Origin: Pseudomonadales bacterium | GTDB lineage: Bacteria; Pseudomonadota; Gammaproteobacteria; Pseudomonadales; Pseudohongiellaceae | Reading direction: 5' to 3' | NCBI GenBank assembly: GCA_023257855.1 | Contig: JALRBG010000321.1 | Coordinates: 1-44,760 of the forward strand | DNA: 44,760 nt | Shown: one piece after another, positions 4,862 to 44,713 of the stretch | How positions within the stretch are numbered: position 1 is the stretch's first letter | Layout of the letters: the number at the start of each line of letters is the position of its first letter | Translations under genes and position numbers: made by a program | The notes under the pieces: generated by a model | The model's database searches: none | The model's input: only the letters and a program-made list of their open reading frames with translations | Told to the model about the DNA's origin: nothing

Positions 4862-5052
4862 GCGTGAACTCCCCTTGTGCGTGCATAAGCATATGACAGC
4901 GCACAATGTTACCCGCTAGCGCGGTTAGCGCAAAGGATTGAAAAATCCCGCTTCAGTAAAGCAGGCGTCGTGATCCGGCCGGGCATTGCTGGACGCCACC
5001 GGATCAGGCGATTATTCTCGCCTGATGCACTGGAAGCAGTAAAAAGCGAGTC

Positions 5053-9327: not shown

Positions 9328-10188
9328 TTAAGGCAGGACGAAGGTGTAATCCAGGGTGAAGAAGGGTTTCTTTAGCCCCCTCGCCTTGATCTCGGCCTTG
9401 TCGGTGTGCTCGGTCACATCAACGCGGAAATCCTTCACCGAGAAGATGGTGTCGGAATCCACGTACGGCGAGCGGTTGAAATACATCATGGTGGTGAACT
9501 CGTCGTGGCCCTTGGCGTGGATCTTGTAGTGGATGTGGGCGGCGCGGTAACCGTGGCGGCCAAGCTGGTGCAGCATCGAGCCGGTGGGGCCAGCCAGAGG
9601 CACCGGGTAGTCGCCCGGGATAACGGTAGCCACATCGAATTCGCCGGTCTTGCTGGTGGTGAAGCGGCCGTAGAAATTCCACTCGGGCAGATGTTCGCGC
9701 TGGACGAAGTAGTAGCCCTCGCCGTTGGGCTGCCAGATGTCCACCTTGGCGCCGACTACCGGCTTGCCATTCTTGTCCACGACCTTGTGGTGGATGAACA
9801 GCGGATTGTCCTTTTTACCGATTTCGCCGATCAGTTCACCGGACTTGCGCTTGGGGAGGCCGGGTATATACAGCGGGCCCTCCACGTTCATCTCGGTGGT
9901 CTTCTTGTTGGCAGCGTCTTCCAGCAGCACGGCGATCTCGGAGATGCCCAGGCAGTCGCTCATCAGGTGGATTTCCCCCATCGGGAAGTCCTGGTTGGGC
10001 TGCGCCAGCTTGAACAGGAACTGGCGGCCGATCTCCAGTTCCTCGGTGGTCAGGTTCACCTCTTTCTGGAAGGCGTGCAGATGCTTGATCAGGCTGGAAT
10101 AGATTTCATGCAGGCGAGGATTTCGCTTGCCCCCGTCACCATGGTTGATAACGGCCTTGGTGATGTTTTTCAGGGTGATGGCTGTCAT
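9328..10188 (-). CDS. intradiol ring-cleavage dioxygenase (catechol / hydroxyquinol 1,2-dioxygenase family)
   Basis: 286 aa with EGPLYIPG, DIWQPNGEGYY, GRFTTSKTGEF and YRAAHIHYKI (Tyr/His iron-ligand regions of intradiol dioxygenases). Confidence 0.88.
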   Translation of the reverse strand: MTAITLKNITKAVINHGDGGKRNPRLHEIYSSLIKHLHAFQKEVNLTTEELEIGRQFLFKLAQPNQDFPMGEIHLMSDCLGISEIAVLLEDAANKKTTEMNVEGPLYIPGLPKRKSGELIGEIGKKDNPLFIHHKVVDKNGKPVVGAKVDIWQPNGEGYYFVQREHLPEWNFYGRFTTSKTGEFDVATVIPGDYPVPLAGPTGSMLHQLGRHGYRAAHIHYKIHAKGHDEFTTMMYFNRSPYVDSDTIFSVKDFRVDVTEHTDKAEIKARGLKKPFFTLDYTFVLP

Positions 10189-15403: not shown

Positions 15404-17569
15404 TCAGTAATCCATCGGTGTTTCGCGGATCTGAAATTGCACCATTTTGCCGGTGGTGCCCTTGCCACCTTCGGTATGCCAGATCAGGTGGTTGCCGTAG
15501 TTGGCCCAGAGGGAGCGGCCTTTCCAGCCCAGGTCCGGATCGTCGATACGGCCGTCCAGACCGCGATGGTAGAAGCCCATCGGGTACGGAACGCGCAGGA
15601 AGGTCCAGTCACCGGATTCCGGATCCAGTGCGATCAGAGAATCTGAGTTGGAGCCGGTGATGATCGGCGTGTCCTTGCCCAGGCCGCTGACATTATGCTG
15701 GTCGACCCAGCCGAAGTAATGGAAATCGGCTGGTACGTCGCTGTTGCCCATCTTCGGACCCGGAGTCTGGTAAAGGGTCCAGCCGGCATCACAATGGGTG
15801 CCGGTTTCAGTGCCGGGTCCATTCAGGACGGGACAGGCGCTGCGATCGAGCTTGGCCCAGTGCGAAGAACCTGCCAGGGCGACCCAGGGATTGCCCTTGC
15901 TGTCCAGGTCCATGCCGCGCGGGTCGAAGCCGGGATCAGGAATCGCATAGACTTCAGCGATACAGGTTTCCGGCGGATTATTGCCGCGATCCAGGCGGAT
16001 GATGGAGCCGAACGGGAAGCCCGCACCGCTGTCCTCGTTGGCGCCCCAGACGATGTTGCTGTTGTTGGGGTCGGGGATCACGGTGTACATGTTGTTGCGG
16101 ATTTCGGTATCCAGGTTCGGATCCTTTTCATCGGCATCCCAGGCGTTCCACGGGCGGGTAATCACACCGTCACCGTTGGTGTCGATGATCTGCGGACACC
16201 AGCCCTGGGACAGTTCCTCGTCATGGGTCTGGTCCCAGATGCGTGTGTTGACCCAGCCGAATACCGGGCCCAGCAGCTCGTTGAAGTACAGGGTGTTATC
16301 CGGATCGGTGCCGAACTGCAGGTGATGCGTGGCGAAACAGGTGTCGATCAGCTCGAACTGGCCGGTGACCGGATCAAACACGGAGGCCTGGCGGTTGCTG
16401 AAAGTCAGCGGGTAATACTGCGCGTACTTGTTGTCGGAATCGCGACCGCAGAATGCCGGCTGGTCATTGCGCACCTTGGACGTCATCCAGACGCGGCCAT
16501 CGGGACCGATCATCGGGTTGTGCGGGTCGGCCGGGTTGTAGTCCGGTCCCCACAGGTGCTCGAAGCCCCAGAAGTTGGAGGGGTTGCCCGGAGCCGGGAA
16601 GCGGCCGCGCACGATGCGGGGGTCTTCCTTGGTGGGGATGGTATAGAAGTAGGAGTCGTTGGTGATCGGGTCCACCACCGCCAGGGTACCGTGGCCGGAG
16701 GAAACCGCGTAGGTCGGGCCGTAGGCGTTTACCGTGGGGTTGTTCTTGTCCGTGGTGATTTCGTCGTGCATGAAATCATGGTCGCCGCCGATATCACGCA
16801 GGGTAACTACCACATTGCGCTCTACGCCGGTCGGGCGCGGCGGTTGCGGAGGTACCGCGCCGCCTTCGATCTTGCGGGTCCAGTTGGCGAGCATGTCGAC
16901 CATGCCGTTCATGCCGATGCCGGCCAGGTTGGCCGCCATGGAGCCGCCGCGGACACCCAGCGTGGTGCGATAGCGCCAGGCTTCTTCGTGGGAGTCGAAA
17001 CCAAGGTGATCCATGTGGTCCAGGGAGCGGGTCACCTCGTTGCCAAGCTGGTGACAGAACTCGCAGTCGCTCTTGAACTCGTGCAGCATTTTTTTCTGGC
17101 TGGTGATGGCCGGCATGAAACCGTTGGCACCGGTACCCGGGAAATTCTCGTCACCCGGTATTTCGATCAGGGACAGCCAGTAGTCAGGCGGGTAGACCTT
17201 GGCGGCGTCAGCGGGTGTCGGTGCAACGCTGACGCTCAGCGCCACATCCCGGTCGCCCGGGCGGCCTTCGGTGGTCTCGGAATCGAGCAGGCCGTAACCA
17301 CGCACCCACAGGTTGTAGGTGACATCCGGCAGCTGGGGCATGACCCAGCGTCCCTGGTCATCGGTGACAACGATCTTGATGAAGCCGGTATTCAGCTCGT
17401 TGGTTTCCGCGATCACCCAGACGCCAGCTTCGGGACCGTTTTCACTGGTCACGGTGCCGGTAATATAACCATCGGGGTATTTGCGTTCTGTGAACCCGGG
17501 AACCTGGGCCATCATTGCCGTGCTCACGAAAAGCAGGCCAACTGCCATGGCTCTGAAAATAGTCTTCAT
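15404..17569 (-). CDS. secreted multidomain protein: carboxypeptidase-regulatory-like beta-sandwich + single c-type haem motif + large propeller-like region; function unknown
   Basis: 721 aa with signal peptide MKTIFRAMAVGLLFVSTAMMAQ. The segment GTVTSENGPEAGVWVIAE...VVTDDQGRWVMPQLPDVTYNLWVRGYG looks like a CarboxypepD_reg fold. There is one CXXCH (CEFCHQ). The C-terminal ~450 aa are rich in W/G/D repeats. Confidence 0.65.
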   Translation of the reverse strand: MKTIFRAMAVGLLFVSTAMMAQVPGFTERKYPDGYITGTVTSENGPEAGVWVIAETNELNTGFIKIVVTDDQGRWVMPQLPDVTYNLWVRGYGLLDSETTEGRPGDRDVALSVSVAPTPADAAKVYPPDYWLSLIEIPGDENFPGTGANGFMPAITSQKKMLHEFKSDCEFCHQLGNEVTRSLDHMDHLGFDSHEEAWRYRTTLGVRGGSMAANLAGIGMNGMVDMLANWTRKIEGGAVPPQPPRPTGVERNVVVTLRDIGGDHDFMHDEITTDKNNPTVNAYGPTYAVSSGHGTLAVVDPITNDSYFYTIPTKEDPRIVRGRFPAPGNPSNFWGFEHLWGPDYNPADPHNPMIGPDGRVWMTSKVRNDQPAFCGRDSDNKYAQYYPLTFSNRQASVFDPVTGQFELIDTCFATHHLQFGTDPDNTLYFNELLGPVFGWVNTRIWDQTHDEELSQGWCPQIIDTNGDGVITRPWNAWDADEKDPNLDTEIRNNMYTVIPDPNNSNIVWGANEDSGAGFPFGSIIRLDRGNNPPETCIAEVYAIPDPGFDPRGMDLDSKGNPWVALAGSSHWAKLDRSACPVLNGPGTETGTHCDAGWTLYQTPGPKMGNSDVPADFHYFGWVDQHNVSGLGKDTPIITGSNSDSLIALDPESGDWTFLRVPYPMGFYHRGLDGRIDDPDLGWKGRSLWANYGNHLIWHTEGGKGTTGKMVQFQIRETPMDY

Positions 17570-20966: not shown

Positions 20967-23021
20967 TTATTTCCCCGGCAGGGCAAAGACGTACAGGTTG
21001 TTGCCCGATCCGTTATCGATGTTCAGGCGCACCGGGCCCATGGTGCCGTTGCTGATGCCGGGTGCCGACAGGTTATTGCCAGTGATGACGGCGATGTACT
21101 GGCGACCATCGACACTGTAAGTGATATTGCTGGTGGAGATCGGCCCGCCGAGCACCGTTTCCCACAGGACCTCCCCGGTATCCAGGTCCTGGGCCCGGAA
21201 GCGCCGGTTGACGTCACCCCAGAACAACAGGCCCCCCCCTGTGGTGAGGATGGATGCCGTGGTCGGGATCATCCCGGTATGCCAGTAGTCGATCTCCCCG
21301 GTTTCCATGTTGATCTTCGCCATGCCATTGAGTTCGTCCGGTGTCGTGCCGGGCGCGCTGATGCCGATGCGGCTCTGCGGCATGGCCGGCAGGCCTTCCG
21401 AGGCCGGCATGGCGGATGTCATGTTCAGGCAGTTGCGCACGAAAGGTACGTACATGGCATTGCGTTCCGGGTTGTAGGAACTGGGCCAGTACGAGCGGGT
21501 GTTGAAGTAACAGATGATGCGGTGGGCGCCGGGTTCGGTCAGTAGCAGGTCGCGGTTGATGGTGGTCAGCCCGGTGTTGACGTCGATATCCTCGATCAGG
21601 AAGTTCTCATGTTCTTCCGGGAATGGCAGCGCCCAGAGAAATTCACCCGTGTGCTTGTCCAGTACCCACAGGCCTCCCCCTTCCCCGACGTTGACCACCA
21701 CGTCGCGTTCCTGGCCGACCACTGCCGGGTTGATCCACTTCACGTGCTCGGGATCCGGATTCACCCGGGTGCGGAAAATGATGCGTTCTTCGTTCATGTC
21801 CTCGTCCCAGTCGTCACCCGGCAGGTGCTGGTAGTACCAGGCCAGGTTGCCGGTGTCCGGATCGATGGCGACGGTGGAATTACTGTACAACTCGGCAGGC
21901 GCCTGCAGGGGCACGGCGAAGGAATCGCCGCCATGACGATCGTAACGGGTATAGGGGGACGGATTGGCGATGCCCCAGTAGATGAGCCCGGACTCGGGAT
22001 CGTAGGAACCGGGCAAGCCCCAGGCGGAGGCACGACGGTCGTCCAGCGGCACGCCGGCCCAGGTATCGTAGCCCGGCGGCTGATCCGGCGCCTGGGTGGT
22101 ATAGAAGGTCCATTGCAGTTCGCCGGTCAGGGCATCATGGGCCGTGATCACGCAATCGGCGCGCGTACGGCAGGTGCCGGCAGACAGGACCTTGCCATCG
22201 GCCACGAAGGTGCCGGACGTGATGTCGCGGCCGTTACTCTCGCTGCGCCAGCGTTGCTCGCCGGTTACCGCGTCGATGGCGATGATCGAGCCGTCGGAAG
22301 CGCCGAAATAGACCATATCCTGGTAAATGGACATGGTCTTGGAACGGCCTGCCCGACCGGCCAGGATTTCCGGGGTGTGGCGCCAGATAAGGTCACCCGT
22401 CGTGGCATCCAGGGCAACGATGGTGGCATCCGGCATGGTCAGGTACATGACCCCGTCATAGACGGTGGGAATGGTTTCGGTGACGCCGTCGGGCAGGCCC
22501 CGCGACCATGCCAGGCCGATTTCCCCGACATTGTCCCTGTTGACCTGGTCCAGCGGGCTGAAACGCTGGGCGTCGAAGGTGCGGCTGAACATGAGCCAGT
22601 CGGCCGGGTCCGGGTCGGCCAGCATCGCGTCCGTCACGGGCCGATAGTTCTCGATGGCGGACATGGAGGCCAGCGGATTGAAGGAGGTGGCGTTGTCCAT
22701 CGAGGAAGGACTGAAATTGACGGCCAGGAATCGCACGTAGTCCAGCAGTGCGGGCATCTGCCCGTCATCAATGACGACAGGTGGCATACCCTTTTCCGGG
22801 TTGCCGGTGCGCAGGAAGGCGATCAGCGCCTGTTCATCCTCGCTGCCCACGCGTTCGAGAATGCTGGGACCCAGTGTGCCGCCGGAGCCGTTGGCACCAT
22901 GGCAATGGGCGCAGACCGTGTTGAAAATCTCGAGCCCTTCCGCCATTTCCTGGGCATAACCAGCGTGAGCGTAAACGCTGAAAATCAAACCTGTGCAAAA
23001 AAGGTTTTGTTTAAAGTTCAT
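20967..23021 (-). CDS. PQQ-dependent quinohaemoprotein dehydrogenase with N-terminal cytochrome c domain
   Basis: After the signal peptide comes CAHCHGANGSG plus a distal GMPP (class I cytochrome c). The PQQ propeller start follows (DWLMFSRTFDAQRFSPLDQVNRDNVGEIGLAWS). I prefer ATG 23021 (MNFKQ..., AGGTGA 9 nt upstream) over the GTG at 23033. Confidence 0.85.
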   Translation of the reverse strand: MNFKQNLFCTGLIFSVYAHAGYAQEMAEGLEIFNTVCAHCHGANGSGGTLGPSILERVGSEDEQALIAFLRTGNPEKGMPPVVIDDGQMPALLDYVRFLAVNFSPSSMDNATSFNPLASMSAIENYRPVTDAMLADPDPADWLMFSRTFDAQRFSPLDQVNRDNVGEIGLAWSRGLPDGVTETIPTVYDGVMYLTMPDATIVALDATTGDLIWRHTPEILAGRAGRSKTMSIYQDMVYFGASDGSIIAIDAVTGEQRWRSESNGRDITSGTFVADGKVLSAGTCRTRADCVITAHDALTGELQWTFYTTQAPDQPPGYDTWAGVPLDDRRASAWGLPGSYDPESGLIYWGIANPSPYTRYDRHGGDSFAVPLQAPAELYSNSTVAIDPDTGNLAWYYQHLPGDDWDEDMNEERIIFRTRVNPDPEHVKWINPAVVGQERDVVVNVGEGGGLWVLDKHTGEFLWALPFPEEHENFLIEDIDVNTGLTTINRDLLLTEPGAHRIICYFNTRSYWPSSYNPERNAMYVPFVRNCLNMTSAMPASEGLPAMPQSRIGISAPGTTPDELNGMAKINMETGEIDYWHTGMIPTTASILTTGGGLLFWGDVNRRFRAQDLDTGEVLWETVLGGPISTSNITYSVDGRQYIAVITGNNLSAPGISNGTMGPVRLNIDNGSGNNLYVFALPGK

Positions 23022-23099
23022 GGTAATTTTCACCTGGTTTCTACCTATCGGAAATTAGACCACAACCCAGGAAGCGTGACGAGCGCAGGTGTTATCCTG

Positions 23100-23778: not shown

Positions 23779-24654
23779 ATGTGTGACGAAAGAACCTGGA
23801 AAGAAGACAAGGCTTACCTGGGCAAGAAAAAACTGAGCCGCCGCCAGTTCAACCGCCTGACCGCCGGGGCGTCAGTGGCCATGATGCTGCCGCCGGTAGC
23901 CAACGCCCAGCAGGTGACCTCCAGTCACGTCGAGATCACCACGCCTGACGGCGTCGCCGACTGCTTCTATGTGCATCCCGCGTCAGGCAAGCATCCGGCC
24001 GTGCTGGTATGGCCCGACATCTTCGGCCTGCGCGATGCCTTCGAAACCATGGGCACACGCCTGGCGCAGTCTGGCTATTCCGTGCTGGTGGTGAATCCTT
24101 TCTACCGCATCCAGCCCGCGCCGACGTCCGAGCCCGGCGCCGACTTCAACGATCCCGACACCCGCAACAGCCTGTTCTCCATGATGGGTTCACTGAATGC
24201 CCAGACGCACTTCACGGATGCGCAAGCCTTCCTCGGCTGGCTGGACCAGCAGGATGAAGTCGACACCAGCCGCGGTGCCGGCACCACCGGTTACTGCATG
24301 GGCGGTCCGATGGTCATGCGCACCGTGGCGGCCGTACCGGATCGCTTTAAGGCCGGTGCCACCTTCCACGGCGGCGGCCTCGCCACCGATGCCGCAGACA
24401 GCCCGCACCTGCTGATTCCGCAGACCCAGGCGAGCATGCTGCATGCCATCGCCGCCAACGACGACGAAGCCAGCCCGACAGTGAAGGACACCCTGCGCGA
24501 TGCCTATGCTGCGGCCGGTATCGCTGCCGAGATCGAGGTTTACACCGGCACGCTGCACGGCTGGTGCGCCATCGACTCGCAGGTGTACAACATGGCGCAG
24601 GCCGAACGGGCCTGGAATCGCCTGCTGGCCCTGTTTGAAACGGCACTCGCCTGA
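23779..24654 (+). CDS. Tat-exported dienelactone hydrolase family protein
   Basis: 291 aa with twin-arginine motif SRRQFNRLTAGASVAMMLPPVANA. The DLH-like body contains the GYCMGG nucleophile elbow. RBS GGGGGA. Confidence 0.8.
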   Translation: MCDERTWKEDKAYLGKKKLSRRQFNRLTAGASVAMMLPPVANAQQVTSSHVEITTPDGVADCFYVHPASGKHPAVLVWPDIFGLRDAFETMGTRLAQSGYSVLVVNPFYRIQPAPTSEPGADFNDPDTRNSLFSMMGSLNAQTHFTDAQAFLGWLDQQDEVDTSRGAGTTGYCMGGPMVMRTVAAVPDRFKAGATFHGGGLATDAADSPHLLIPQTQASMLHAIAANDDEASPTVKDTLRDAYAAAGIAAEIEVYTGTLHGWCAIDSQVYNMAQAERAWNRLLALFETALA

Positions 24655-25469: not shown

Positions 25470-25892
25470 ATGAAAAAAACAATCACGATGCTGCTTGCCG
25501 CGGCCGTCAGTTCGGTTGCCAGCGCACATCACTCGGCAGCGGTATTCTACAAGATGGATGAGGAAATCACACTCACGGGCAAGGTCACCGAATTCCGCAT
25601 GGGCAACCCGCACCTGCGCATCTATTTCGATCGGGTCAACGAGGATGGTGAAACAGAAAAGTGGATGGCTGAAGGCGGTTCGCGCACCGTGCTGCTGAGG
25701 CACAACTGGACCGGCAATGAAATCAAGGAAGGCGACGTCATCACCATGACCGGCAACCCGTCACGCGACGAAGATTCGAACATCGTCCACGTCAAGGACA
25801 TCATCCTGGCAGATGGCAGGGAAATGTTTGCCGAGGATCTCAATCCCGACAACGCCGCCCGCCTGCTGGAAGAGCGCCGGCGAAGGGATTAA
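25470..25892 (+). CDS. S-family small secreted protein, copy S1 (uncharacterised; predicted mature N-terminus HHS)
   Basis: 140 aa, MKKTITMLLAAAVSSVASA|HHSAAVFY..., with the GNPHLRIYF motif. The ATG lies 1 nt after the L1 stop, with GGAG 9 nt upstream. Confidence 0.75.
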   Translation: MKKTITMLLAAAVSSVASAHHSAAVFYKMDEEITLTGKVTEFRMGNPHLRIYFDRVNEDGETEKWMAEGGSRTVLLRHNWTGNEIKEGDVITMTGNPSRDEDSNIVHVKDIILADGREMFAEDLNPDNAARLLEERRRRD

Positions 25893-27730: not shown

Positions 27731-27753
27731 TTTACCTGCACTTTACCCTGCAC
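27731..27753. repeat. tandem 11/12-mer TTTACC(C)TGCAC x2
   Basis: The repeat lies immediately downstream of the L4 stop, in the spacer before the amidohydrolase gene. Confidence 0.4.
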
Positions 27754-28814
27754 TAAGGCAAACGCGAGTAGGTGTAATCTCCCGATACATGGGAAAGAAT
27801 AAACGACTCTACCTCGCCGTCATCGTTGACGACAAAACGGTACGACAGTCCCAGGCCGTCGAACAGGGTCTCTGACAGCGGCACCAGCGTACGCGGTACA
27901 CCCTGCTCCAGCCCCGCCGCCCCGAGCCCGAGTGCGCTGTAGTTACCGACGATCTTCGCGATCAGTTCGTTGCCCTCCAGGGTGACTTCGTAGGTGCGCG
28001 GGCCGTCAGTATAGATCCCGCGATACGAGCCCACATATTTTGCCAAGATATCCGGCGACACCGAGACACCCTTGTCGGCCGCATCGGTGAGCCTGCCTTC
28101 CCAGGTTTCACTGCCGCGCTCACAGACCGACTCCAGCATGCCGGTATCAGCCTGCAGGCGCATGGCCGAGGTGTAGCCCCACGGTGCCGTGAAGGCATCG
28201 GGATCACTGAAGGTCGCCTCGATCTGCAGATGGCCAAAATCCGTGCGCGTGATGCGCTCGGTGACGCGCAGTGCCTCCGTATGCGAGACACCGTATCGGC
28301 TCACCCAGGTCTGGTCGTTGAAACCGTTTGATTCCACCACGAGGGTGTCGCCTTCCCAGTGCCCGGCGGAGTGACCCGTAAAACTCGGAAAGGGATTGGT
28401 TTCGAGTTCGCGCCCGTCGAGGTGTATCACCCGCCAGGTCAGGTCTTCATTCAGGATGACCAGCATGTCCGGTGTTTGCACATAACGTTTCCAGCCGCCG
28501 GCACTTTCCGTTTCGGGGCCGTTCGGCAGGCAGGTGAACAGTGGGCGTGCCTTGTAATACTCAACCTGGCGGTCCCGGGCCAGGTCGGCGACCCATGGCT
28601 GCAGGATAGCGGGATCCAGATCCGCGACGGGCGGCGGACCGTTCCACAGGCCGGTGAGATCCGGCTTGCCATCCGGCGTGCGAGGTGCTGGCGCGCTCAG
28701 ATCCGGGCTGCCATCCGGGGAGCGCGGAATACCCGGCCACGGCCGGTCCAGCCACTGGGCGGCTGCAGGCAGCGATAGTGCGATCAGTACAGTAAATGCG
28801 AAGACATGTTTCAT
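27753..28814 (-). CDS. L-family secreted protein, copy L4 (orphan, with extra C-terminal domain)
   Basis: Start moved to 28814 (MKHVFAFTVLIALSLPAAAQ, RBS GGAGAGGG). Contains DLTGLW, LFTCLPNG, IHLDGRELE, GHSAGHWEGDTLVVE, DPDAFTAPW and SVCERG. An additional ~100-aa C-terminal beta-rich domain follows (YVGSYRG...TYEVTLEGNELIAK...). Confidence 0.75.
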   Translation of the reverse strand: MKHVFAFTVLIALSLPAAAQWLDRPWPGIPRSPDGSPDLSAPAPRTPDGKPDLTGLWNGPPPVADLDPAILQPWVADLARDRQVEYYKARPLFTCLPNGPETESAGGWKRYVQTPDMLVILNEDLTWRVIHLDGRELETNPFPSFTGHSAGHWEGDTLVVESNGFNDQTWVSRYGVSHTEALRVTERITRTDFGHLQIEATFSDPDAFTAPWGYTSAMRLQADTGMLESVCERGSETWEGRLTDAADKGVSVSPDILAKYVGSYRGIYTDGPRTYEVTLEGNELIAKIVGNYSALGLGAAGLEQGVPRTLVPLSETLFDGLGLSYRFVVNDDGEVESFILSHVSGDYTYSRLP

Positions 28815-30072: not shown

Positions 30073-30474
30073 ATGTTTAGCAAGTTGCTTTCGTGCCTGG
30101 TCCTGATTGGCCTGCTGCACGCATCAGGTGCACAGGCACACCACAGCTTTGCCGCTGAATTCAGTTATGACGAATTCGGGACGATCGAAGGCGAGGTGAT
30201 CGAGGTTCTGTTCGTCAATCCGCACGCCCGGTTCTTCGTCGCCGTCATCAACGAGGCCGGCGAGGAGGAGATCTGGGACACCCAGACATCGAGCAGTGTC
30301 GGCCTTACCCGTTTCGGCTGGGTCAAGGATTCCCTGCAGGTGGGCGACAAGGTAGAAATGGAAGGCAATCTGGGCCGCAACAATACGCGCAAGCTCTGGA
30401 TTCGCAAGGTCACTTTTGAAGATGGCCGCGTGATTACACCGACACCGGGAGGAGCAGCCAGTGAAAAGGATTAA
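30073..30474 (+). CDS. S-family small secreted protein, copy S2 (predicted mature N-terminus HHS)
   Basis: 133 aa, ...LLHASGAQA|HHSFAAEF..., with VNPHARFFV, LTRFGW and GDKVEMEG motifs. RBS GGGGG upstream. Confidence 0.8.
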   Translation: MFSKLLSCLVLIGLLHASGAQAHHSFAAEFSYDEFGTIEGEVIEVLFVNPHARFFVAVINEAGEEEIWDTQTSSSVGLTRFGWVKDSLQVGDKVEMEGNLGRNNTRKLWIRKVTFEDGRVITPTPGGAASEKD

Positions 30475-31498: not shown

Positions 31499-31525
31499 GC
31501 CCGGTGAAATGGACATTCACCGGGC
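31499..31525 (+). other. intercistronic hairpin between L2 and the YVTN propeller gene
   Basis: GCCCGGTGAA / TTCACCGGGC form a 10-bp perfect stem with a 7-nt loop. No U-tract follows. Confidence 0.5.
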
Positions 31526-31569
31526 CAGTTCATATCCTAGTAACTGACGACAACCTACCGGCTACCGTA

Positions 31570-32601
31570 ATGAAAAAGTTATTCCCTTTTCTTTCCATGT
31601 TTCTTTCCATGTTCATTTCCGCGCTTGCCATCGCCCAGGAAGGCAGCGTTATCTATGTCACCAACGAGGATTCCAACACGGTATCCGTGATTTCCGGCGA
31701 CACCCACGAGGTCATCGCCACCATTCCCGTCGGCAAGCGCCCGCGCGGCATCAAGGTGAGCCCGGATGGCAGCGTCTTTTATGTCGCCCTGAGCGGTTCA
31801 CCCAAGTGCCCGCCAACCATGGACGACGAGGAATGTGAAAAGATGGTGGCCGACAAGTCTGCGGACGGCATCGCCGAAGTGAATGCCGTGACACAGGAAG
31901 TGGTCCGTATTCTGCCGAGCGGCTCCGACCCCGAGCAATTCGACGTGAACTGGGAGACCGGCAGACTGTATGTGTCAAACGAGGACACCCACACCTCGAG
32001 CATCCTCGACCTGAACAGCGGCACCCTGCTGATGACCATTCCCACCGGCCTGGAACCCGAGGGTGTGCGCCTGACGCCAGACGGCAGCCGTTTCTACGTG
32101 AGCGGGGAAGTGGCCAGCGACATAACCGTGCTCAATGCCAGTACCGGTGCCGAGATCACCCGTATCGGTGTTGGGCTGCGCCCGCGTGACATCCTGTTTA
32201 CCGCCGACAGCTCGACGGCTTACATCTCCGCCGAATTCGGCGCCCTGATCAACATCATCGATGTGGCCAGCAATACCGTAACCGGTGAAATCGCGCTGCC
32301 CGAAGGCTCTCTGCCCATGGGCCTGGTGCTGTCGCCCGACGAAACCATGCTCTATGTCGCCAACGGCCGCGGCCAGACCGTGACGGCCATCGGCCTGGCC
32401 AGCAGGCAGGTGGTGAATTCCGTGGTGGTTGGTCCGCGTCCCTGGGGACTGGCCATGAGCCCTGATGGCACAACACTGTATTCAGCCAACGGTCCGTCCG
32501 ACGATGTATCCGTCATCGATATCGCCAGTTTCGAGGTGGTGAAGAAGATTCCCGTGGGTGAGACGCCCTGGGGCGTCGTGACGGGTCCCGCTCCCCGCTG
32601 A
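31570..32601 (+). CDS. YVTN-family beta-propeller repeat protein (of the type associated with PQQ-dependent catabolism)
   Basis: Signal peptide MKKLFPFLSMFLSMFISALAIAQ. Repeated units are of the form YVTNEDSNTVSVI...IPVGKRPRGIKVSPDGS. Confidence 0.8.
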   Translation: MKKLFPFLSMFLSMFISALAIAQEGSVIYVTNEDSNTVSVISGDTHEVIATIPVGKRPRGIKVSPDGSVFYVALSGSPKCPPTMDDEECEKMVADKSADGIAEVNAVTQEVVRILPSGSDPEQFDVNWETGRLYVSNEDTHTSSILDLNSGTLLMTIPTGLEPEGVRLTPDGSRFYVSGEVASDITVLNASTGAEITRIGVGLRPRDILFTADSSTAYISAEFGALINIIDVASNTVTGEIALPEGSLPMGLVLSPDETMLYVANGRGQTVTAIGLASRQVVNSVVVGPRPWGLAMSPDGTTLYSANGPSDDVSVIDIASFEVVKKIPVGETPWGVVTGPAPR

Positions 32602-38784: not shown

Positions 38785-40425
38785 TTAATACATTACGAAG
38801 GCGAACAGGGTATCCCGGACTGCCGCCAGCAGGTACTGCCTGCCGTCGATCAGGTAAGTCTGGGGACCGTTGGAAATATTGCCGATGCGGCTGTGCCACA
38901 GCAGGTCGCCATTCTCGCCGTCAAAGGCCACGAGGTTGCCGCTGCCGTCGCCGGTGAAGACGAGACCTGTCGCCGTCGTGAGCACACCGGCGCCGACGGG
39001 GGCGCCGCCCGGCCATTCGTGCCGCCACACGGCTTCACCGGTGCGGTAATCCAGGGCATTGAAGGCATTGCCGTCGGTGCCGACGATGGCGACCCGCTTG
39101 CCACCGAGGCCCATGGAGCCGCGCGGATCCGGGTCCGTGAGATAGACGATATTGAAGCCGTTGTTTTCGTGGGTATAGAACAAGCCGAAATCCGGATTGA
39201 AGGCCGGTGGCTGCCAGTTGGCCACACCGCCTTCTATCGGCGACACCAGAGCGCCGGGAATAATGGCTTCCTTCTGCGGGTTGGGAATCGGCGAGCCATC
39301 CTCGCGAACACCCAAGTCCCAGTTGGATTTGGTGCCGTATTTTTTCGTTGCCACCGATTCGCCAGTGATGCGATCGACGGTAAAGAAATAACCGTTGCGC
39401 GCTGCCGTGGAGACCAGCTTGCGCGGCTGCCCGTCGATCTCGCCATCGATGAGGATCGGCGTCTGGGCAGAATCCCAGTCGTGCGTGTCATGGGGTGAGG
39501 TCTGGTGATACCAGGCCATCTCGCCGGTATCGACGTTCACCGCCATCAGTGTGCAGGTAAACAGGTTGTCACCGGGGCGGGCCACACCGGTATAACCGGG
39601 AGTCGGATTGCCGGTGCCGAAAATGTAGTAGCGGGTTTCCGGATCGAACACGCCGGGCACCCACACCTGGCCGCCGCCGTTGCGGGCCGCATCGAGATTG
39701 GGCCAGGTATCCAGTCCGGGATCGCCGGGATTTTGCGGCACAGTAAAGAATTTCCATTGCAACTCGCCGGTGGCCGGATCGAAGGACTGCAGGAACCCGG
39801 GACTGTCGAGGTCGTTGCCGGTACCCACCAGCAGGTGGTCATCCACCACGATGGGCGCCATGGTGGAGAAGTATTGCTGCTCTAGGGGCGCGATCTGCAC
39901 ATGCCAGTTTTCTTCCCCGGTATGGATGTCCAGGGATACGAGATAGTTGTCCGGCGTCTCGAAAAACAGCGCGTCGTTCCAGATGGCCGGGCCGCGGTTG
40001 CCGATATGGATGCCGCCGCGGGAATGCCAGAAGTAATGCCACAATTCGGTACCGTCGCGGGCGTCCATGGCCCAGACATGGTCAGGGGAAGTGACGTAAA
40101 GAATGCCGTTCACCATCAGGAAGCTGCCTTTCAGGTTGGCGCCGGGCGGCAGGTAGTTGCCATCGCCCTCCCCGCCCTGCACGGTGACGATATTGCCCTG
40201 CGTGCGGACATTGGTGTTCATGCGCACGGTCCAGGCCAGGGTCAGGTGCTGGACATTGTCCTTCGTTACCTGAGTGAGCCGGCTGTAGCGCTGGCCGGTG
40301 TAATCACCGGAATAGGTCGGCCACTCCTCCGCCAGCGGGAAATACAGGTCGGCAGGTTCCACACCCTGTGCCGAACCGATGGCGGGAATGCCCACGAGCA
40401 CTGACAGTAACAACAGATTCTTCAT
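38785..40425 (-). CDS. PQQ-dependent dehydrogenase-like beta-propeller protein (no fused haem domain, no vicinal Cys pair)
   Basis: Start set at 40425 (MKNLLLLSVLVGIPAIGSAQG, AGGAG 7 nt upstream). Contains WPTYSGDYTGQRYSRLTQVTKDNVQHLTLAW and repeated W-motif blades. Confidence 0.78.
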   Translation of the reverse strand: MKNLLLLSVLVGIPAIGSAQGVEPADLYFPLAEEWPTYSGDYTGQRYSRLTQVTKDNVQHLTLAWTVRMNTNVRTQGNIVTVQGGEGDGNYLPPGANLKGSFLMVNGILYVTSPDHVWAMDARDGTELWHYFWHSRGGIHIGNRGPAIWNDALFFETPDNYLVSLDIHTGEENWHVQIAPLEQQYFSTMAPIVVDDHLLVGTGNDLDSPGFLQSFDPATGELQWKFFTVPQNPGDPGLDTWPNLDAARNGGGQVWVPGVFDPETRYYIFGTGNPTPGYTGVARPGDNLFTCTLMAVNVDTGEMAWYHQTSPHDTHDWDSAQTPILIDGEIDGQPRKLVSTAARNGYFFTVDRITGESVATKKYGTKSNWDLGVREDGSPIPNPQKEAIIPGALVSPIEGGVANWQPPAFNPDFGLFYTHENNGFNIVYLTDPDPRGSMGLGGKRVAIVGTDGNAFNALDYRTGEAVWRHEWPGGAPVGAGVLTTATGLVFTGDGSGNLVAFDGENGDLLWHSRIGNISNGPQTYLIDGRQYLLAAVRDTLFAFVMY

Positions 40426-40439
40426 GTGATTGCTCCTGC

Positions 40440-41384
40440 TCATTCCAGTGTCATCAGGTAGGCGGTGACGTCATGCATGATCTCGTTGGTCAGAACCGAC
40501 AGCAGGTCACGATGCGCCTGCAGCGGATCAGCGATGACCACGCCGGTCACCCGTGGATCGGTATTCTCATGTAGGGTGAAGCTGCGATACTGCCCTGCGT
40601 CGGTTGTCAGGCTGACGATGAAGTCGTCGCGCCGGTTCAGGCGGCCGGACACTGACTGGCCATTGCTTAAGGTGACTGTAGCGCGGACTTCGCGGCGGGA
40701 CGTATCGGCATTGGGATCTGGCGCGCCCCAGCGGCGACCTGCCACCCAGGAGTTCTGCAGGTTTTCCGGGTTGCCGATCCTGGCAGCGATGTCAGCAAGG
40801 TCGCCGGCCACCGAGTGGCAACTGGAGCATTGCGCATTGAAAAATATCTCACCGGCGGCGGCATCGCCGACAACGATATTGAGCTCCACTGTCTCGCCCG
40901 GCGGCGGACCACCCTGCCCGGACTGGCGCGCCCACACGCTGTGGATGTATTCCGCCACGGCGACACTGTCCTGCACCGACACCTGCAGCGGTGGCATTTC
41001 CGGCATGCCTGGCGTGCTGCGTCCGTTCTGGATGATCTCGCCGATCAGTTCACCGTGCTGGTCGTTGAGGACGATCTGCGAGCGCAAAAGGTTGGGGCCG
41101 CCCTGATCGCCGCCACGCATGTCGGCACCGTGACAAGCCCTGCACAAGCCTTCATAAATCGTTTCGCCGCGCGCCAGCACTTCCGGCGCTGCCAGTTCAC
41201 GCACCTGGGACGGAAAGATGGCAAAGGGTATGGCCTGGGGCGAAGAACTTTCCGGCGCTGCCGGCGCAGTAATTGCGGCGGGTGATGTGTCCGTGGCGTC
41301 ACTCGCAACCTGTTCCTGCTGGCCACAGGCAGCCAGTCCAAGTGACAGGCACAACACGCAGGAAACTCGTGGAATTAATGGCAT
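40440..41384 (-). CDS. dihaem c-type cytochrome, predicted lipoprotein
   Basis: Start moved to 41384 (MPLIPRVSCVLCLSLGLAAC, lipobox LAAC, RBS GGAG). Two CXXCH motifs (CRACHG, CSSCHS). Confidence 0.8.
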   Translation of the reverse strand: MPLIPRVSCVLCLSLGLAACGQQEQVASDATDTSPAAITAPAAPESSSPQAIPFAIFPSQVRELAAPEVLARGETIYEGLCRACHGADMRGGDQGGPNLLRSQIVLNDQHGELIGEIIQNGRSTPGMPEMPPLQVSVQDSVAVAEYIHSVWARQSGQGGPPPGETVELNIVVGDAAAGEIFFNAQCSSCHSVAGDLADIAARIGNPENLQNSWVAGRRWGAPDPNADTSRREVRATVTLSNGQSVSGRLNRRDDFIVSLTTDAGQYRSFTLHENTDPRVTGVVIADPLQAHRDLLSVLTNEIMHDVTAYLMTLE

Positions 41385-41554
41385 GGATACTCCGGCTTTT
41401 ATTATTTTTGGCCACTGCGGTATCAGAGCAATGAAGGTACAAGCATAGGAAAAACGGCTGGAAATTGACAGCCATATTGCGTGCATTTGCCACGGCGATG
41501 ACAGCGGCATCGTTTTTGGGTAGCCTGTGCCGATCAACCCTGGGGAGTATGACC

Positions 41555-42340
41555 ATGGCCCTCACCCGCCGCACACTGACAAAATCCCTTGCCGCCTCCG
41601 CCATCCTGCCGGCCGGCATCACGCTGGCCCAGGCAAAACCGCGTCTCGGCATGATCTTCCCCGTTATCGACCGCGATGTACCCGAAGAGGCCATCCGCAT
41701 GTATGGCGACCGCATCGAGTACGTGGTAGAAAACCTCGACCTGCAAACCATGACACCCGACGGCTACGACGCCGTCATCGGCGACATACCGGCTCTGGCA
41801 CAGAAACTGGTTGAACAGGATGTAGATGCCATCATGGTCATGGGCACGTCGCTGACCTTCTACCAGGGCCGCGAATTCAATGAACGCCTGACAAGCACCA
41901 TTGCCGATTCCACCGGTCTGCCGACGTCCACCATGAGCAACGGCATCATCAACGGCCTGAACGCCGTCGGCGGCAGGAACATTGCCTGCGCCACCGCCTA
42001 CAATGACGTGGTCAACGACAGGCTGGTGCGCTTCCTGACCCAGCATGGTTTCAACGTCACCAATATCGAAGGCCTGGGTATAGAAGCGGTTGGCGATATT
42101 TTTTCGGTCACCCAGCCGCAGCTGATCGATTTCTGCAGCAGTGTCGGCGGCGCCGCCGCGGAAGCGGATGCGATCCTCATCAGTTGCGGTGGCCTGATTA
42201 CGCTCGACGTGCTGGAGCCGGTGGAAAACCGGACCGGCAGGCCCGCTATTTCCAGTACTCCGCATGCGCTTTATGAAGGCGCCAGGCTATTGGGCATCGA
42301 TGCCCGGGTGCCGGGTTACGGCAGGCTGCTCTCAATCTAG
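41555..42340 (+). CDS. Tat-exported Asp/Glu-racemase-superfamily protein (maleate isomerase / arylmalonate decarboxylase-like)
   Basis: Start at 41555 (MALTRRTLTKSLAASAILPAGITLAQA, GGGGAG 7 nt upstream). The body has LGMIFPV..., DAIMVMGTSLTF, IACATAYND and ILISCGGLITLDV blocks typical of this fold. Confidence 0.6.
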   Translation: MALTRRTLTKSLAASAILPAGITLAQAKPRLGMIFPVIDRDVPEEAIRMYGDRIEYVVENLDLQTMTPDGYDAVIGDIPALAQKLVEQDVDAIMVMGTSLTFYQGREFNERLTSTIADSTGLPTSTMSNGIINGLNAVGGRNIACATAYNDVVNDRLVRFLTQHGFNVTNIEGLGIEAVGDIFSVTQPQLIDFCSSVGGAAAEADAILISCGGLITLDVLEPVENRTGRPAISSTPHALYEGARLLGIDARVPGYGRLLSI

Positions 42341-42359: not shown

Positions 42360-43151
42360 TCAGTCCCCTGGACCGACAATGTGCTCCAGGTCGAGGTTGT
42401 TGTCCTGGCAGAAATATTCCGCCATCGGGAAGGTAGACCAGGGGACGTCCCAGCTGGCCGTCCACGGCCGCGTATAGGCGCCGGGGTCGTCGATGGTCAC
42501 CTCGTAATGCAGGGTATCGTGATCCGGTCGTGAAATTCTTTCCACCAGGTGCAGCTGTTCTGTGTGCGGCATCCCGGTCGGGCGGCGCGCAAACCAGAAA
42601 CGCTCGTTAAAGCCCACACTGTCCACGACCAGCGTATCCCCTTCCCAGTGCCCGACCGAGTGACCGAAGAACGTCGGTGTATAGGTAGCCAGGTCCGGGT
42701 GTTCACGGCCGTCCATCCAGATTTCGCGCCAGCTGCGGTTGGCGCCGCCGGACATCACCAATATCCGGTCCAGACCCTTGTCGTGCACGATCTCCAGACC
42801 CCACGGGGTGTGGAACTGGCGCGGGCCGCCCGGCGGCATGCAGCGCGGGTGCGGGTCGTCCCGTCCCAGCGTGGCAAGGCGCTCCTTGACCAGCTGCAGG
42901 GCCCAGGGCTGGAACGGGGCCACCTTGTCGATCTCCTCCGGGTGCACCAGGAAAGCGCCTTCCATCTCGACAAAGTTTTCCGACAGGTTGCCGACGCCGC
43001 TGTTCCAGTGACCGATCTCCCCACGAGCCGCACCCAGGTTCACGGTGCCGTCGTCAAAGCGTGGTGCCGGCTGCTGTGCCAGCACAGGAAAAGTCGTAAC
43101 TGCCAGCAGGCAAGTGGCCAGGTATTTCTTGGTATATGTAAATTCAGTCAC
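42360..43151 (-). CDS. L-family secreted protein, copy L3
   Basis: There is no in-frame ATG before the signal peptide. GTG at 43151 (VTEFTYTKKYLATCLLAVTTFPVLAQQ) overlaps the S3 3' end by 8 nt, with GAGGAAAG upstream. Contains HPRCMPPG, REIWMDGREHP, GHSVGHWEGDTLVVD, DDPGAYTRPW and YFCQDN. Confidence 0.75.
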   Translation of the reverse strand: MTEFTYTKKYLATCLLAVTTFPVLAQQPAPRFDDGTVNLGAARGEIGHWNSGVGNLSENFVEMEGAFLVHPEEIDKVAPFQPWALQLVKERLATLGRDDPHPRCMPPGGPRQFHTPWGLEIVHDKGLDRILVMSGGANRSWREIWMDGREHPDLATYTPTFFGHSVGHWEGDTLVVDSVGFNERFWFARRPTGMPHTEQLHLVERISRPDHDTLHYEVTIDDPGAYTRPWTASWDVPWSTFPMAEYFCQDNNLDLEHIVGPGD

Positions 43152-43551
43152 TGGCGCTTTCCTCGCGGCTGGAACCGGCAAACAGACGCCTGCCGCTGTC
43201 GGCCAGGGTGACCGTATTGGCGTTGACCAGGTTGCTGCCGTCCCGGGCCAGGCTGCCTTCCACTTCGAGAATATCGCCCACGCTGACCGAGTTGCGCGTC
43301 CAACCGTTGCGTTCCATAGCAATGGGCGAGCCCATTTCGAAAGCCCATTCCACGTAGTCACCATCCTCGGTTTCCACTTCCAGGAAGAAGTACACATGCG
43401 GATTGCGCCAGTCCATCTTGATCAGGTAGCCGGTGAGGGTTACGGGCCTGTCGGCGTCGTACTGGGCTGTAAAGGAATGGTGGCTTGAGGCCACCGGTGT
43501 GATGAAGGCCGCTGATACCAGCAATAACCTTGTAAACAAGCGTAGTGACAT
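43144..43551 (-). CDS. S-family small secreted protein, copy S3 (predicted mature N-terminus HHS)
   Basis: Start moved to 43551 (MSLRLFTRLLLVSAAFITPVASS|HHSFTAQY, RBS GGGGGA). Contains RNPHVYFFL, MERNGW and GDILEVEG. Confidence 0.8.
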   Translation of the reverse strand: MSLRLFTRLLLVSAAFITPVASSHHSFTAQYDADRPVTLTGYLIKMDWRNPHVYFFLEVETEDGDYVEWAFEMGSPIAMERNGWTRNSVSVGDILEVEGSLARDGSNLVNANTVTLADSGRRLFAGSSREESASD

Positions 43552-43633: not shown

Positions 43634-44713
43634 TTATGCCACGGGTATATAGTAGGCCGTGCCTGCCATCAGCAGCCGGGCCGTGCGCATGATGGCAACA
43701 CTCTTCGGCGCCGGATCGGCAGGATCGTCACTGAGCTCCACTTCCACGGCCAGCGCGCCGGTGGGATGCTCGACGTGGCAGAGCTTGCGCTCCCCCGCCG
43801 GTATCGTGGCAAGGTCATGGCCTACGGCCCCTGGCGTGGTGGCGGCCACGGCCACACTGGCGGCCGCAAGTACGCCTACCGCATCGTGCACACGGTGGGG
43901 GATGAAACTGCGGGTGTTGATGAGGCCGCCGTTTTGCGCCGGCGACACGATGGTCATTTTCGGAACGGTTTTATCCTTCACATCACCCAGGTTCATCATG
44001 GGACCCACCTTCAGGCGGATGGCTTCGACACGTTCTTTCAACGCCGTATTGCCTTCCAGCGCCTCGATGCTTTCATCGCCTTTCAGACCCAGGTCGGGTG
44101 CAGAGATCATTACCACGGGCATGCCGTTGTCGACCAGCGTGACCGGTATGCCATCGACTTCGTCAACCACATTGCCGGAGGGAAACAGCGCACCGCAACT
44201 GGAGCCGGCCACGCCGACGAATTCGATCATGATGGGCGCATGGGTGCCGGGAACGCCATCGATGGCGGCATCACCGTCATACTGCACTTGCTTGCCCGGC
44301 GTCAGGATGCGCTGGCGGGCGATGCTGTCGGTATTTTCCATGTAGACGGTAACGATGGTTTCACCGTCATTGGCTTCCACCAGCCCGTTCTCGATGGCGA
44401 AGGGACCAACACCAGCAAGGATGTTGCCGCAGTTCTGAGCCGTTGACGTGCGCGCCTCGTCCACGACGACCTGCACGAAGAGATAATCGACGTCTATGCC
44501 TTCGCGCGCCGATTTCTTGATGATGGCGACCTTGCTGGTCAGCGGATGGGCGCCGCCGACACCGTCGATCTGGCGAGAATCGGGCGAGCCCATGACACGC
44601 AGCAGGACTTCCTCACGGGCAGCCGGATCTGCGGGCAGGTCGCTGTCCAGGTAATAGGTGCCCTTGGAGGTGCCGCCGCGCATCAACATGCATGGAATGG
44701 CTTTCTGCATCAT
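43634..44713 (-). CDS. PrpF-family isomerase, 4-oxalomesaconate tautomerase (GalD)-like
   Basis: 359 aa. The N-terminus IPCMLMRGGTSKGTYYLDSDLP and the SKVAII...NCGN block are characteristic of PrpF/GalD proteins. The ORF 43433..44446 (+) is an antisense shadow. Confidence 0.8.
   Translation of the reverse strand: MMQKAIPCMLMRGGTSKGTYYLDSDLPADPAAREEVLLRVMGSPDSRQIDGVGGAHPLTSKVAIIKKSAREGIDVDYLFVQVVVDEARTSTAQNCGNILAGVGPFAIENGLVEANDGETIVTVYMENTDSIARQRILTPGKQVQYDGDAAIDGVPGTHAPIMIEFVGVAGSSCGALFPSGNVVDEVDGIPVTLVDNGMPVVMISAPDLGLKGDESIEALEGNTALKERVEAIRLKVGPMMNLGDVKDKTVPKMTIVSPAQNGGLINTRSFIPHRVHDAVGVLAAASVAVAATTPGAVGHDLATIPAGERKLCHVEHPTGALAVEVELSDDPADPAPKSVAIMRTARLLMAGTAYYIPVA

Follow-up and report, generated by a model that had tools for sequence, protein, structure and literature searches.

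In the histidine brace, the amino group and the pi-nitrogen of an N-terminal histidine join the tau-nitrogen of a second histidine in a T-shaped site of three nitrogens around copper, and it is the removal of a signal peptide that unmasks the amine for copper binding (PMC10952591). The known histidine-brace families are all beta-sandwiches (PMC10952591; PMC12537917). A histidine at position +1 is found in just 2.6% of signal-peptide proteins, and the four bacterial classes that were chosen for an N-terminal histidine after the leader have all been characterised as metalloproteins (PMC12537917). Here we analyse the small exported protein S2, encoded at positions 30073-30474 on the forward strand of a 44,760-nucleotide stretch of DNA from a Pseudomonadales bacterium of the family Pseudohongiellaceae (assembly GCA_023257855.1, contig JALRBG010000321.1; this whole stretch is called the window), together with its two paralogues S1 and S3 and with the larger proteins, named L, that are encoded beside them. 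An earlier note on the same DNA, drawn from its letters alone, had proposed that the three S proteins mature to an N-terminal His-His-Ser and form a metal site akin to those of lytic polysaccharide monooxygenases (LPMOs), CopC and YcnI. The reading that we favour, at a probability of roughly 45%, is that S would be the metal-bearing subunit of an obligate two-part periplasmic module with L, built on an oligonucleotide/oligosaccharide-binding (OB) fold and carrying an N-terminal chelate made from His1-His2 and His29.

Three paralogues with a predicted N-terminal histidine pair

A six-frame motif scan found the HHS...NPH pattern in exactly three open reading frames (ORFs) of the window, those of S1, S2 and S3 (Table 1), and the codons were confirmed by translation. 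S2 reads MFSKLLSCLVLIGLLHASGAQA/HHSFAAEF..., the slash marking the predicted cleavage point, and the corresponding junctions are VASA/HHSAAVFY in S1 and VASS/HHSFTAQY in S3. The spacing from HHS to NPH is exactly 23 residues in each (GNPHLRIYF, VNPHARFFV and RNPHVYFFL), and pairwise identity between the mature parts is just 31-36%. Judged on the sequences, the occurrence of this pattern in the paralogues is far beyond chance, because they are so divergent, because the pattern is almost totally conserved in 375 family members, and because the junction fits in 243 of 244 homologues.

Most of what the earlier note had read from the three sequences holds. Each of them has a predicted N-terminal HHS after its leader, with cleavage before HH agreeing with the (-3,-1) rule in S1, S2 and S3, and the GD-x-(I/V/L)-x-(M/V)-x-G block named as common to them is present in all three. 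An R-x-GW block had been claimed as well; it is found in S2 and S3, but S1 has RHNW. The length given for the proteins, 135 residues, is that of S3, while S1 has 140 and S2 has 133.

Conservation and spread of the DUF6152 family

All three S proteins belong to the Pfam family DUF6152 (PF19649), at 69-89 bits against a gathering threshold of 27, and the same domain is carried by all 240 homologues listed. No NCBIfam model matched S1-S3, no PDB chain matched S by sequence or by profile (DUF6152 is without a solved structure), and a literature search on DUF6152 and PF19649 found no mention of the family. A profile search of 1.84 billion representative proteins gave 14,000 clusters (50% identity) at E <= 1e-3 and 6,938 at E <= 1e-10. 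Genomes that carry the family include Pseudohongiellaceae, the closest relatives of the window, Woeseiaceae and other Gammaproteobacteria, and many Acidobacteriota (Bryobacterales, Terriglobia, Vicinamibacterales), and several loci per metagenome-assembled genome (MAG) are common.

In a hidden Markov model alignment of family members, numbered from the mature N-terminus, His1 is kept in 374 of 375 sequences, His2 in 373, Pro28 in 374, His29 in 370 and Asn27 in 361, so that the three invariant histidines of the earlier note are indeed a property of the family. The invariance of His1, His2, Pro28 and His29 spans 375-479 diverse sequences. Position 3 is Ser in 336 of the 375 (~90%) and otherwise Ala, Gly, Asn or Thr, which rules out an amino-terminal Cu(II)- and Ni(II)-binding (ATCUN) motif, with its histidine at mature position 3. 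Of the 148 representatives taken from an unbiased profile search, 147 have HH, the sole exception being an N-terminally truncated fragment; position 3 is Ser in ~110, Ala in ~25 and Gly, Asn or Phe in the others, and the loop reads NPH, or rarely APH, SPH, QPH or NPP. In divergent subfamilies the Asn becomes Phe, Tyr, Ser, Ala or Gln and the pattern A/HH...x-P-H is kept, for example as A/HHG...NPH or, in a 258-residue Woeseiaceae protein, as A/HHS...FPH. The NPH that had been called invariant is therefore so in the three copies of the window, but family-wide it is Pro-His that is near-invariant, with a variable Asn. No Met stands among the invariant or near-invariant columns of the family alignment. 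Conservation is taken here from the profile search, since the 80 genomic loci (from Gammaproteobacteria and Acidobacteriota) that served for gene order were picked with the peptide pattern AHHSFAAE, which biases their motif counts.

Two side observations concern names and variants in the family. Five S1-like DUF6152 proteins of 135-141 residues (P0454, P0457, P0479, P0481 and P0494) bear the Joint Genome Institute (JGI) name [quoted passage not shown], which is almost certainly a misannotation, because a protein of 137 residues with no Cys can have no Rieske motif. In five loci (L018-L020, L022 and L026; for example L019:7409-8185) the third gene after S-L encodes the divergent DUF6152 protein of 258 residues with A/HHS...FPH; this Woeseiaceae-type product carries a C-terminal extension of ~150 residues, and three of the loci are named Woeseiaceae and one only Proteobacteria.

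Leader peptide and cleavage site

Cleavage was called with the simple (-3,-1) rule plus a hydrophobic core, and it is by this rule-based prediction that His is residue 1 of mature S. The rule permits signal-peptidase cleavage at X/HH in 243 of 244 database homologues, and any one upstream offset in at most 48% of them. Ala occupies position -1 in 353 of 375 sequences, and position -3 holds Ala, Val, Leu, Thr or Ser. We infer that signal peptidase probably cuts at X/HH and thereby exposes His1-His2. A conserved SFA/A site at +5 was considered and found implausible as the cleavage point, since it lies 12 residues from the hydrophobic core. Export of S as a lipoprotein or by the twin-arginine route was likewise rejected, there being no conserved lipobox Cys and a twin-arginine-like motif in just 16 of the 244 leaders. 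The lack of this motif from most leaders points to export by Sec, in which case metal would be loaded in the periplasm.

Fold and covariation of S

AlphaFold2 with 115 aligned sequences folds mature S2 as an OB-fold (mean predicted local distance difference test, pLDDT, 90; predicted template modelling score, pTM, 0.83), which bears out the small beta-barrel that the earlier note had foreseen. The model has a helix at residues 2-7, strands at 8-25, 30-37 and 43-49, a helix at 53-58 and strands at 71-79 and 85-93, that is, the five-stranded barrel of the order beta1-beta2-beta3-alpha-beta4-beta5 that defines the fold, with NPH in the L12 loop. The top PDB matches in Foldseek are the OB domains of single-stranded DNA-binding protein (SSB) and the anticodon-binding OB domain of lysyl-tRNA synthetase (LysRS), at E ~1e-3; the template modelling (TM) score is ~0.5 when normalised to the query, and the 0.58-0.68 obtained when normalising to the target is for the best SSB chains, which are small. 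None of LPMO, CopC, YcnI, DUF4198 and CusF is among the best 50 matches. The kinship with LPMOs, CopC and YcnI that the earlier note had suggested thus falls away: S has an OB-fold and not a beta-sandwich, and sequence and profile comparisons give no match. A wider search for homology to known histidine-brace or metal proteins, through Pfam, NCBIfam and PDB sequence and profile searches, gave DUF6152 only.

Covariation was examined by mean-field direct coupling analysis (DCA) on 479 sequences (effective number 265), in which couplings with the fully invariant columns (H1, H2, P28, H29, G18 and W46) were ignored as pseudocount or outlier artefacts. The analysis recovers the antiparallel ladders of the barrel: beta2-beta3 (30-50, 31-47, 35-45 and 38-44), beta3-beta5 (48-86/88) and beta1-beta4 (17-71/73). 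It also pairs F4 with G79 (rank 9 of 4,950) and N77 (rank 33), A5 with V26 (rank 53, reciprocal best partners) and V26 with N77 (rank 55), couplings which would place the N-terminal helix between the L12 loop, which holds NPH, and the L45 loop, on the canonical binding face of the OB-fold.

Tandem and fusion proteins

The histidine triad depends on N-terminal position. In the seven tandem S-S proteins found among the representatives, the first domain has HH and NPH in every case, but the internal domain has the full triad in none: His29 is lost in six (replaced within KPR, FPN, NPR, GGR, DPI and AGA) and HH in three. Tandem S genes that are separately exported, each with its own leader, keep the triad, and in all 14 S+L fusion proteins S forms the N-terminal part. 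The loss in internal domains and the N-terminal place of S in fusions, taken with the covariation, suggest that the triad depends on a free N-terminus; these patterns across sequences fit a site that would need the free N-terminus and His29 together.

The partner protein L

The earlier note had paired each small protein with a larger one, and such a partner is supported: L genes abut or overlap S genes and S-L fusions exist. Among 97 S genes in the 80 loci, seven are fused to L and 65 are same-strand neighbours of L (53 in the order S-L and 12 in the order L-S), and the remaining ones are mostly in S-S-L arrays. Four Bryobacterales loci (L028, L079, L082 and L065) hold arrays of one S with three or four L (S-L-L-L-L) or of three S with one L. 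The S-L-L-L-L arrays suggest that a single S can serve several L proteins. In the window, a dienelactone hydrolase gene heads a string with L0 and S1, an order also seen at locus L001 of a relative genome; at S1-type loci elsewhere only the L-S pair is kept.

Searches of L against Pfam, NCBIfam and PDB profiles matched nothing, and all its named homologues are called "hypothetical". The AlphaFold2 model of L2 (pLDDT 83) has a leader, two sets of eight strands each (29-118 and 187-299) and a C-terminal helix. Its Foldseek matches are weak (BFA1, BF2706, AimA, the TbpB C-lobe, CRABP, lipocalins and designed barrels), with TM-scores of 0.2-0.3 for the whole chain and of 0.5-0.6 per single-domain target. 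The second barrel alone is common to all L paralogues and most fusions, and L partners are ~30% identical to each other. The invariant residues of L are C172, C310, R207, D212, E264, D283 and E307, with no invariant His among them; C172 and C310 sit in the only low-confidence loops and look like a disulfide pair. The C-terminal part of the orphan paralogue L1b is an extra domain with a weak match to DUF3471.

In some S proteins, P0124 and P0128 among them, the domain fused to the C-terminus of DUF6152 is not L but YceI-like (Pfam E 3e-39 and 4.5e-36), a barrel of the kind that binds polyisoprenoids or quinones. YceI-like X158 domains are binders of ubiquinone-8, and a role as redox partners of LPMOs has been proposed for them (PMC8981238). 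L itself as a remote YceI homologue was rejected at the sequence level (hhalign probability 0.1%).

Genomic neighbourhood

The window is rich in genes for periplasmic oxidative catabolism and also carries amidohydrolases and a sulfotransferase (Table 1). In the closest genome (L001) the slot after L2 is occupied by a gene for 339 residues with no Pfam match, and this slot is not kept in remoter loci. Across the 80 loci the recurrent neighbours are pyrroloquinoline quinone (PQQ) dehydrogenases (11), TonB-type outer-membrane barrels (11) and c-type cytochromes (9 and 4); Acidobacteriota loci are among those in which the dehydrogenases and cytochromes recur. The association of PQQ dehydrogenases and cytochromes with S-L is a lead, counted without a genome-wide background. 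Known or proposed donors of electrons to the histidine-brace LPMOs include PQQ dehydrogenases that carry cytochrome domains, c-type cytochromes and the YceI-like X158 domains (PMC8981238), and by analogy the S-YceI fusions and the dehydrogenases and cytochromes near S-L hint at a redox role. No metal transporter or metal regulator is among the genes of the window, and clustering of the neighbours in the 80 loci gave no universal third gene beyond L. The largest neighbour cluster (L059:5956-7236 on the reverse strand and 27 other loci) was dismissed as spurious long ORFs antisense to L, an artefact of high G+C and a pitfall for any context analysis that takes ORFs at face value. An operon in which S3-L3 would run on into the downstream cytochrome c and PQQ dehydrogenase genes was dismissed too, the intervening ORF being spurious and the real gene there being the Amdase-family one on the forward strand.

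Table 1. Features of the window, with positions in nucleotides from its first letter.
Feature	Position	Strand	Size	Description
S2	30073-30474	+	133 aa	DUF6152 protein; leader 30073-30138; HHS codons 30139-30147; NPH codons 30217-30225; PF19649 69.4 bits
S1	25470-25892	+	140 aa	DUF6152 protein; leader 25470-25526; HHS codons 25527-25535; NPH codons 25605-25613; PF19649 88.6 bits
S3	43144-43551	-	135 aa	DUF6152 protein; leader 43483-43551; HHS codons 43474-43482; NPH codons 43396-43404; PF19649 88.2 bits
L2	30461-31480	+	339 aa	Partner of S2; Sec leader, two predicted 8-stranded beta-barrels, C-terminal helix; GTG start overlaps S2 end by 14 nt
L0	24671-25468	+	~265 aa	L paralogue, core barrel only; 1-nt gap upstream of S1, order L-S; blastp to L2 2e-26
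L3	42360-43151	-	~263 aa	L paralogue; GTG start overlaps S3 end by 8 nt; preceded by AGGAAA
L1b	27753-28814	-	353 aa	Orphan L paralogue; no adjacent S gene; flanked by sulfotransferase and amidohydrolase genes
PQQ-dependent dehydrogenases (three)	2672-4906, 20967-23033, 38785-40443	-		Two fused to a cytochrome c domain (quinohaemoproteins)
Cytochrome c genes (two)	5851-6588, 40440-41537	-		Separate, multi-haem type
Aromatic/lactone catabolism-like set	9328-10188, 7558-8289, 23779-24654, 41465-42340, 43634-44713			Intradiol dioxygenase, two dienelactone hydrolases, Amdase-family gene, PrpF
YncE-like beta-propeller	31504-32601	+		Signal peptide; directly 3' of L2
Exported protein	15404-17569	-	721 aa	Weak CarboxypepD_reg-like N-terminal domain; CxxCH haem-binding motif (SDCEFCHQ); otherwise no Pfam match

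A candidate metal site and its competitors

The proposed course of events is as follows. S would be exported through Sec and cut by signal peptidase I after the conserved A-x-A-type site, so that His1-His2 become exposed. The short helix of residues 2-7 would then rest on the OB binding face, flanked by the L12 loop with its Asn27-Pro28-His29 and by the L45 loop, where the free alpha-amine, the imidazoles of His1 and/or His2, and His29 may converge on a mononuclear transition-metal site. By its chemistry the putative site would be an amino-terminal chelate of the Cu(II)/Cu(I) or the Ni(II) type, resembling a histidine brace on a new scaffold. S would act as the cofactor-bearing subunit, perhaps in a physical complex with L, modelled as an eight-stranded lipocalin-like barrel protein, or with the YceI-like barrel in some fusions. 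A small hydrophobic ligand or substrate would presumably be kept by L close to the metal, possibly for a redox or catalytic task. Of the idea put forward in the earlier note, the predicted His-His N-terminus, the invariant histidines, the barrel and the partner have held and the kinship with known brace families has not; its metallochaperone option loses ground through the many paralogues and the lack of metal-homeostasis genes nearby.

Several observations weigh against this reading. HHS is kept in four of the seven internal domains, where a free amine is impossible, so that HH may act independently of the alpha-amine. The first 10 residues of the S2 model, which include the N-terminal helix, have a lower pLDDT (74), and each window protein has another rule-compatible cleavage site 1-3 residues upstream (ASG/AQA in S2, VAS/SHH in S3 and VAS/AHH in S1). 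S has no conserved Cys or Met, and neither the window nor the recurrent neighbours of the 80 loci include genes for the homeostasis or transport of copper or nickel. A histidine brace built on an OB-fold is without precedent, and a literature search joining both terms found none. To these come the AHHSFAAE bias in the motif counts of the 80 loci and the fact that the PQQ dehydrogenase and cytochrome counts near S-L stand without a genome-wide background rate.

The upstream cleavage sites would matter most if the true cut lay there, for example 1-3 residues before HH, and the histidine cluster were an ordinary side-chain metal or catalytic site. Yet X/HH is the only site conserved in register (243 of 244), upstream options exist in less than half of the members, and the strong preference for Ala at -1 and for Ala, Val, Leu, Thr or Ser at -3 belongs to the junction before HH, so that we give this view very little credence indeed. 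The retained HHS of internal domains lends itself to another explanation, that no metal is involved and that the N-terminal HHS and the NPH loop serve L as a docking site or recognise an organic ligand (quinone, carboxylate or phosphate) that L holds. Such a role would suit the obligate S-L coupling, the existence of S-L fusions and the position of the motif on the canonical ligand-binding face of the OB-fold, and the invariant Arg, Asp and Glu residues of L (R207, D212, E264, D283 and E307) could pair with the histidines. It leaves unexplained, however, why in 243 of 244 homologues the cleavage junction falls precisely before HH, why fusions never place S at the C-terminus and why the loss of His29 is specific to internal domains; moreover, interfaces rarely need three strictly invariant histidines across phyla when the L partners are ~30% identical. 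We consider it unlikely. The histidines might instead serve as axial ligands of a tetrapyrrole, haem or another, sitting inside the partner barrel as in nitrobindin, nitrophorin or a haemophore, and the OB-fold would then act in a CcmE-like way. CcmE is a periplasmic OB-fold haem chaperone, L looks like a lipocalin or fatty-acid-binding protein (FABP) with the nitrobindin-like Rv2717c among its weak fold matches, and the neighbourhoods are rich in cytochromes. Against this, conserved His, Met or Tyr ligands are missing from L and a CxxCH from S, haem ligation does not require a free N-terminus, and no haem-uptake or ccm genes are linked to S-L among the neighbours in the 80 loci. We hold a haem role to be very improbable.

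Where a metal is accepted, its use can be seen in more than one way. S may be a trafficking or sequestering protein, a metallochaperone or an "anglerase"-like protein, whose site would bind Cu, Ni or Zn for delivery elsewhere, with L as an adaptor. CusF is a periplasmic OB-fold metallochaperone, so such a fold can serve in metal trafficking, and the evidence for the site (conservation, tandem domains, cleavage junction and covariation) speaks equally for this use. DUF4198, DUF6702 and Ang-1/2 are at most weakly redox-active and have been assigned transport or capture roles (PMC12537917). But the copy number is unusually high for metal homeostasis, with three S and four L in 45 kb, arrays of the S-L-L-L-L and S-S-S-L kinds and several loci per MAG; transporters, efflux pumps, P-type ATPases and metal regulators are not among the genes that recur near S-L; and the obligate barrel partner has no invariant His, its sole conserved Cys pair looking like a disulfide. 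Trafficking therefore appears quite unlikely to us. A bolder and still more doubtful view would see in S-L periplasmic copper oxygenases or peroxygenases of a new class, with the His1/His2/His29 copper site at the mouth of the lipocalin-like barrel. The barrel would present hydrophobic small-molecule substrates, the diversified L paralogues would widen the substrate range, and the electrons would be delivered by the quinohaemoprotein PQQ dehydrogenases and c-type cytochromes encoded nearby, in the manner in which PQQ dehydrogenases and cytochromes feed LPMOs.

What a metal site would mean

DUF6152 is a large family that often has several copies per genome in Acidobacteriota, Pseudohongiellaceae and Woeseiaceae, and it has no assigned function. 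If the site binds Cu or Ni, no histidine-brace-like site described before would share its OB-fold scaffold or its obligate lipocalin-like partner, and extracytoplasmic metalloproteins with an N-terminal His would extend well past the beta-sandwich families. A role would also be given to a second large family, L, for which Pfam has no model. Should S-L in fact be an oxygenase, a widespread and unrecognised oxidative system would exist in soil Acidobacteriota and marine Gammaproteobacteria.

Comparison with known systems

The histidine-brace proteins (LPMOs of AA9-AA17, CopC, PmoB/PmoD, X325/Bim1 and, as a "mono-histidine brace", YcnI) are the nearest parallel in design. Like them, S is exported, predicted cleavage exposes an invariant His1, a further invariant His follows ~28 residues on, and metal would be loaded outside the cytoplasm. 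Unlike them, S has an OB-fold and not a beta-sandwich of the immunoglobulin (Ig) or fibronectin type III (FnIII) kind, no relation in sequence, profile or Pfam, a second invariant His at position 2 and an obligate barrel partner.

Among proteins of the same fold, CusF is a small periplasmic OB-fold whose Cu(I)/Ag(I) site, of the His/Met/Met/Trp type for Cu(I), lies on the face of the barrel close to a conserved Trp. S likewise is a small and presumably periplasmic OB-fold with a putative site on that face and a conserved Trp, but it has no conserved Met ligands, its putative site is N-terminal and no cusCBA genes accompany it. S as a CusF-type metallochaperone was rejected, since neither the CusF_Ec model of Pfam nor a PDB profile of CusF matched and CusF is missing from the best 50 fold matches. 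With regard to the ligands, NikM has a planar Ni site made by Met1-His2 and His67, and Gly-His-Lys (GHK)-type sequences form a Cu(II) site; by analogy with such Xaa-His chelates, the His2, free amine and distal His of S could give a planar site of four nitrogens. S differs from NikM in being a soluble OB-fold and not a membrane S-component of an energy-coupling factor (ECF) transporter, and in having His also at position 1.

The "signal strapping" families, namely the Ni-binding DUF4198 protein, DUF6702, Ang-1 and Ang-2, set the precedent for predicting a metal site from a conserved His that directly follows the leader of a bacterial DUF family (PMC12537917), and DUF4198 uses His1 together with a conserved His18 (PMC12537917). 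These families are beta-sandwiches, and His1 is found in 65-79% of the two DUF families (PMC12537917), compared with more than 99% of DUF6152. They adjoin metal transporters or regulators, whereas S does not. DUF6152 appears neither in that paper nor in its supplements, and membership of S in DUF4198, DUF6702 or Ang-1/2 was rejected, because Pfam gives DUF6152 only and none of them is among the fold or profile matches.

The redox proteins of the Cbp2D/Cbp2E type combine an X158 domain for ubiquinone-8 with c-type cytochrome domains and have been proposed as reductants of LPMOs (PMC8981238). In the S-YceI proteins the putative metal domain and the barrel share one chain, unlike in Cbp2D/Cbp2E, and no LPMO or carbohydrate-binding module is part of them. 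What the two would have in common is an eight-stranded barrel of the lipid- or quinone-binding kind joined with a redox partner for a copper site at an N-terminal His; S-YceI fusions exist, and quinohaemoprotein PQQ dehydrogenases and cytochromes c lie nearby. The site in S, if real, would work like a histidine brace that has been set on a new scaffold and given a new partner.

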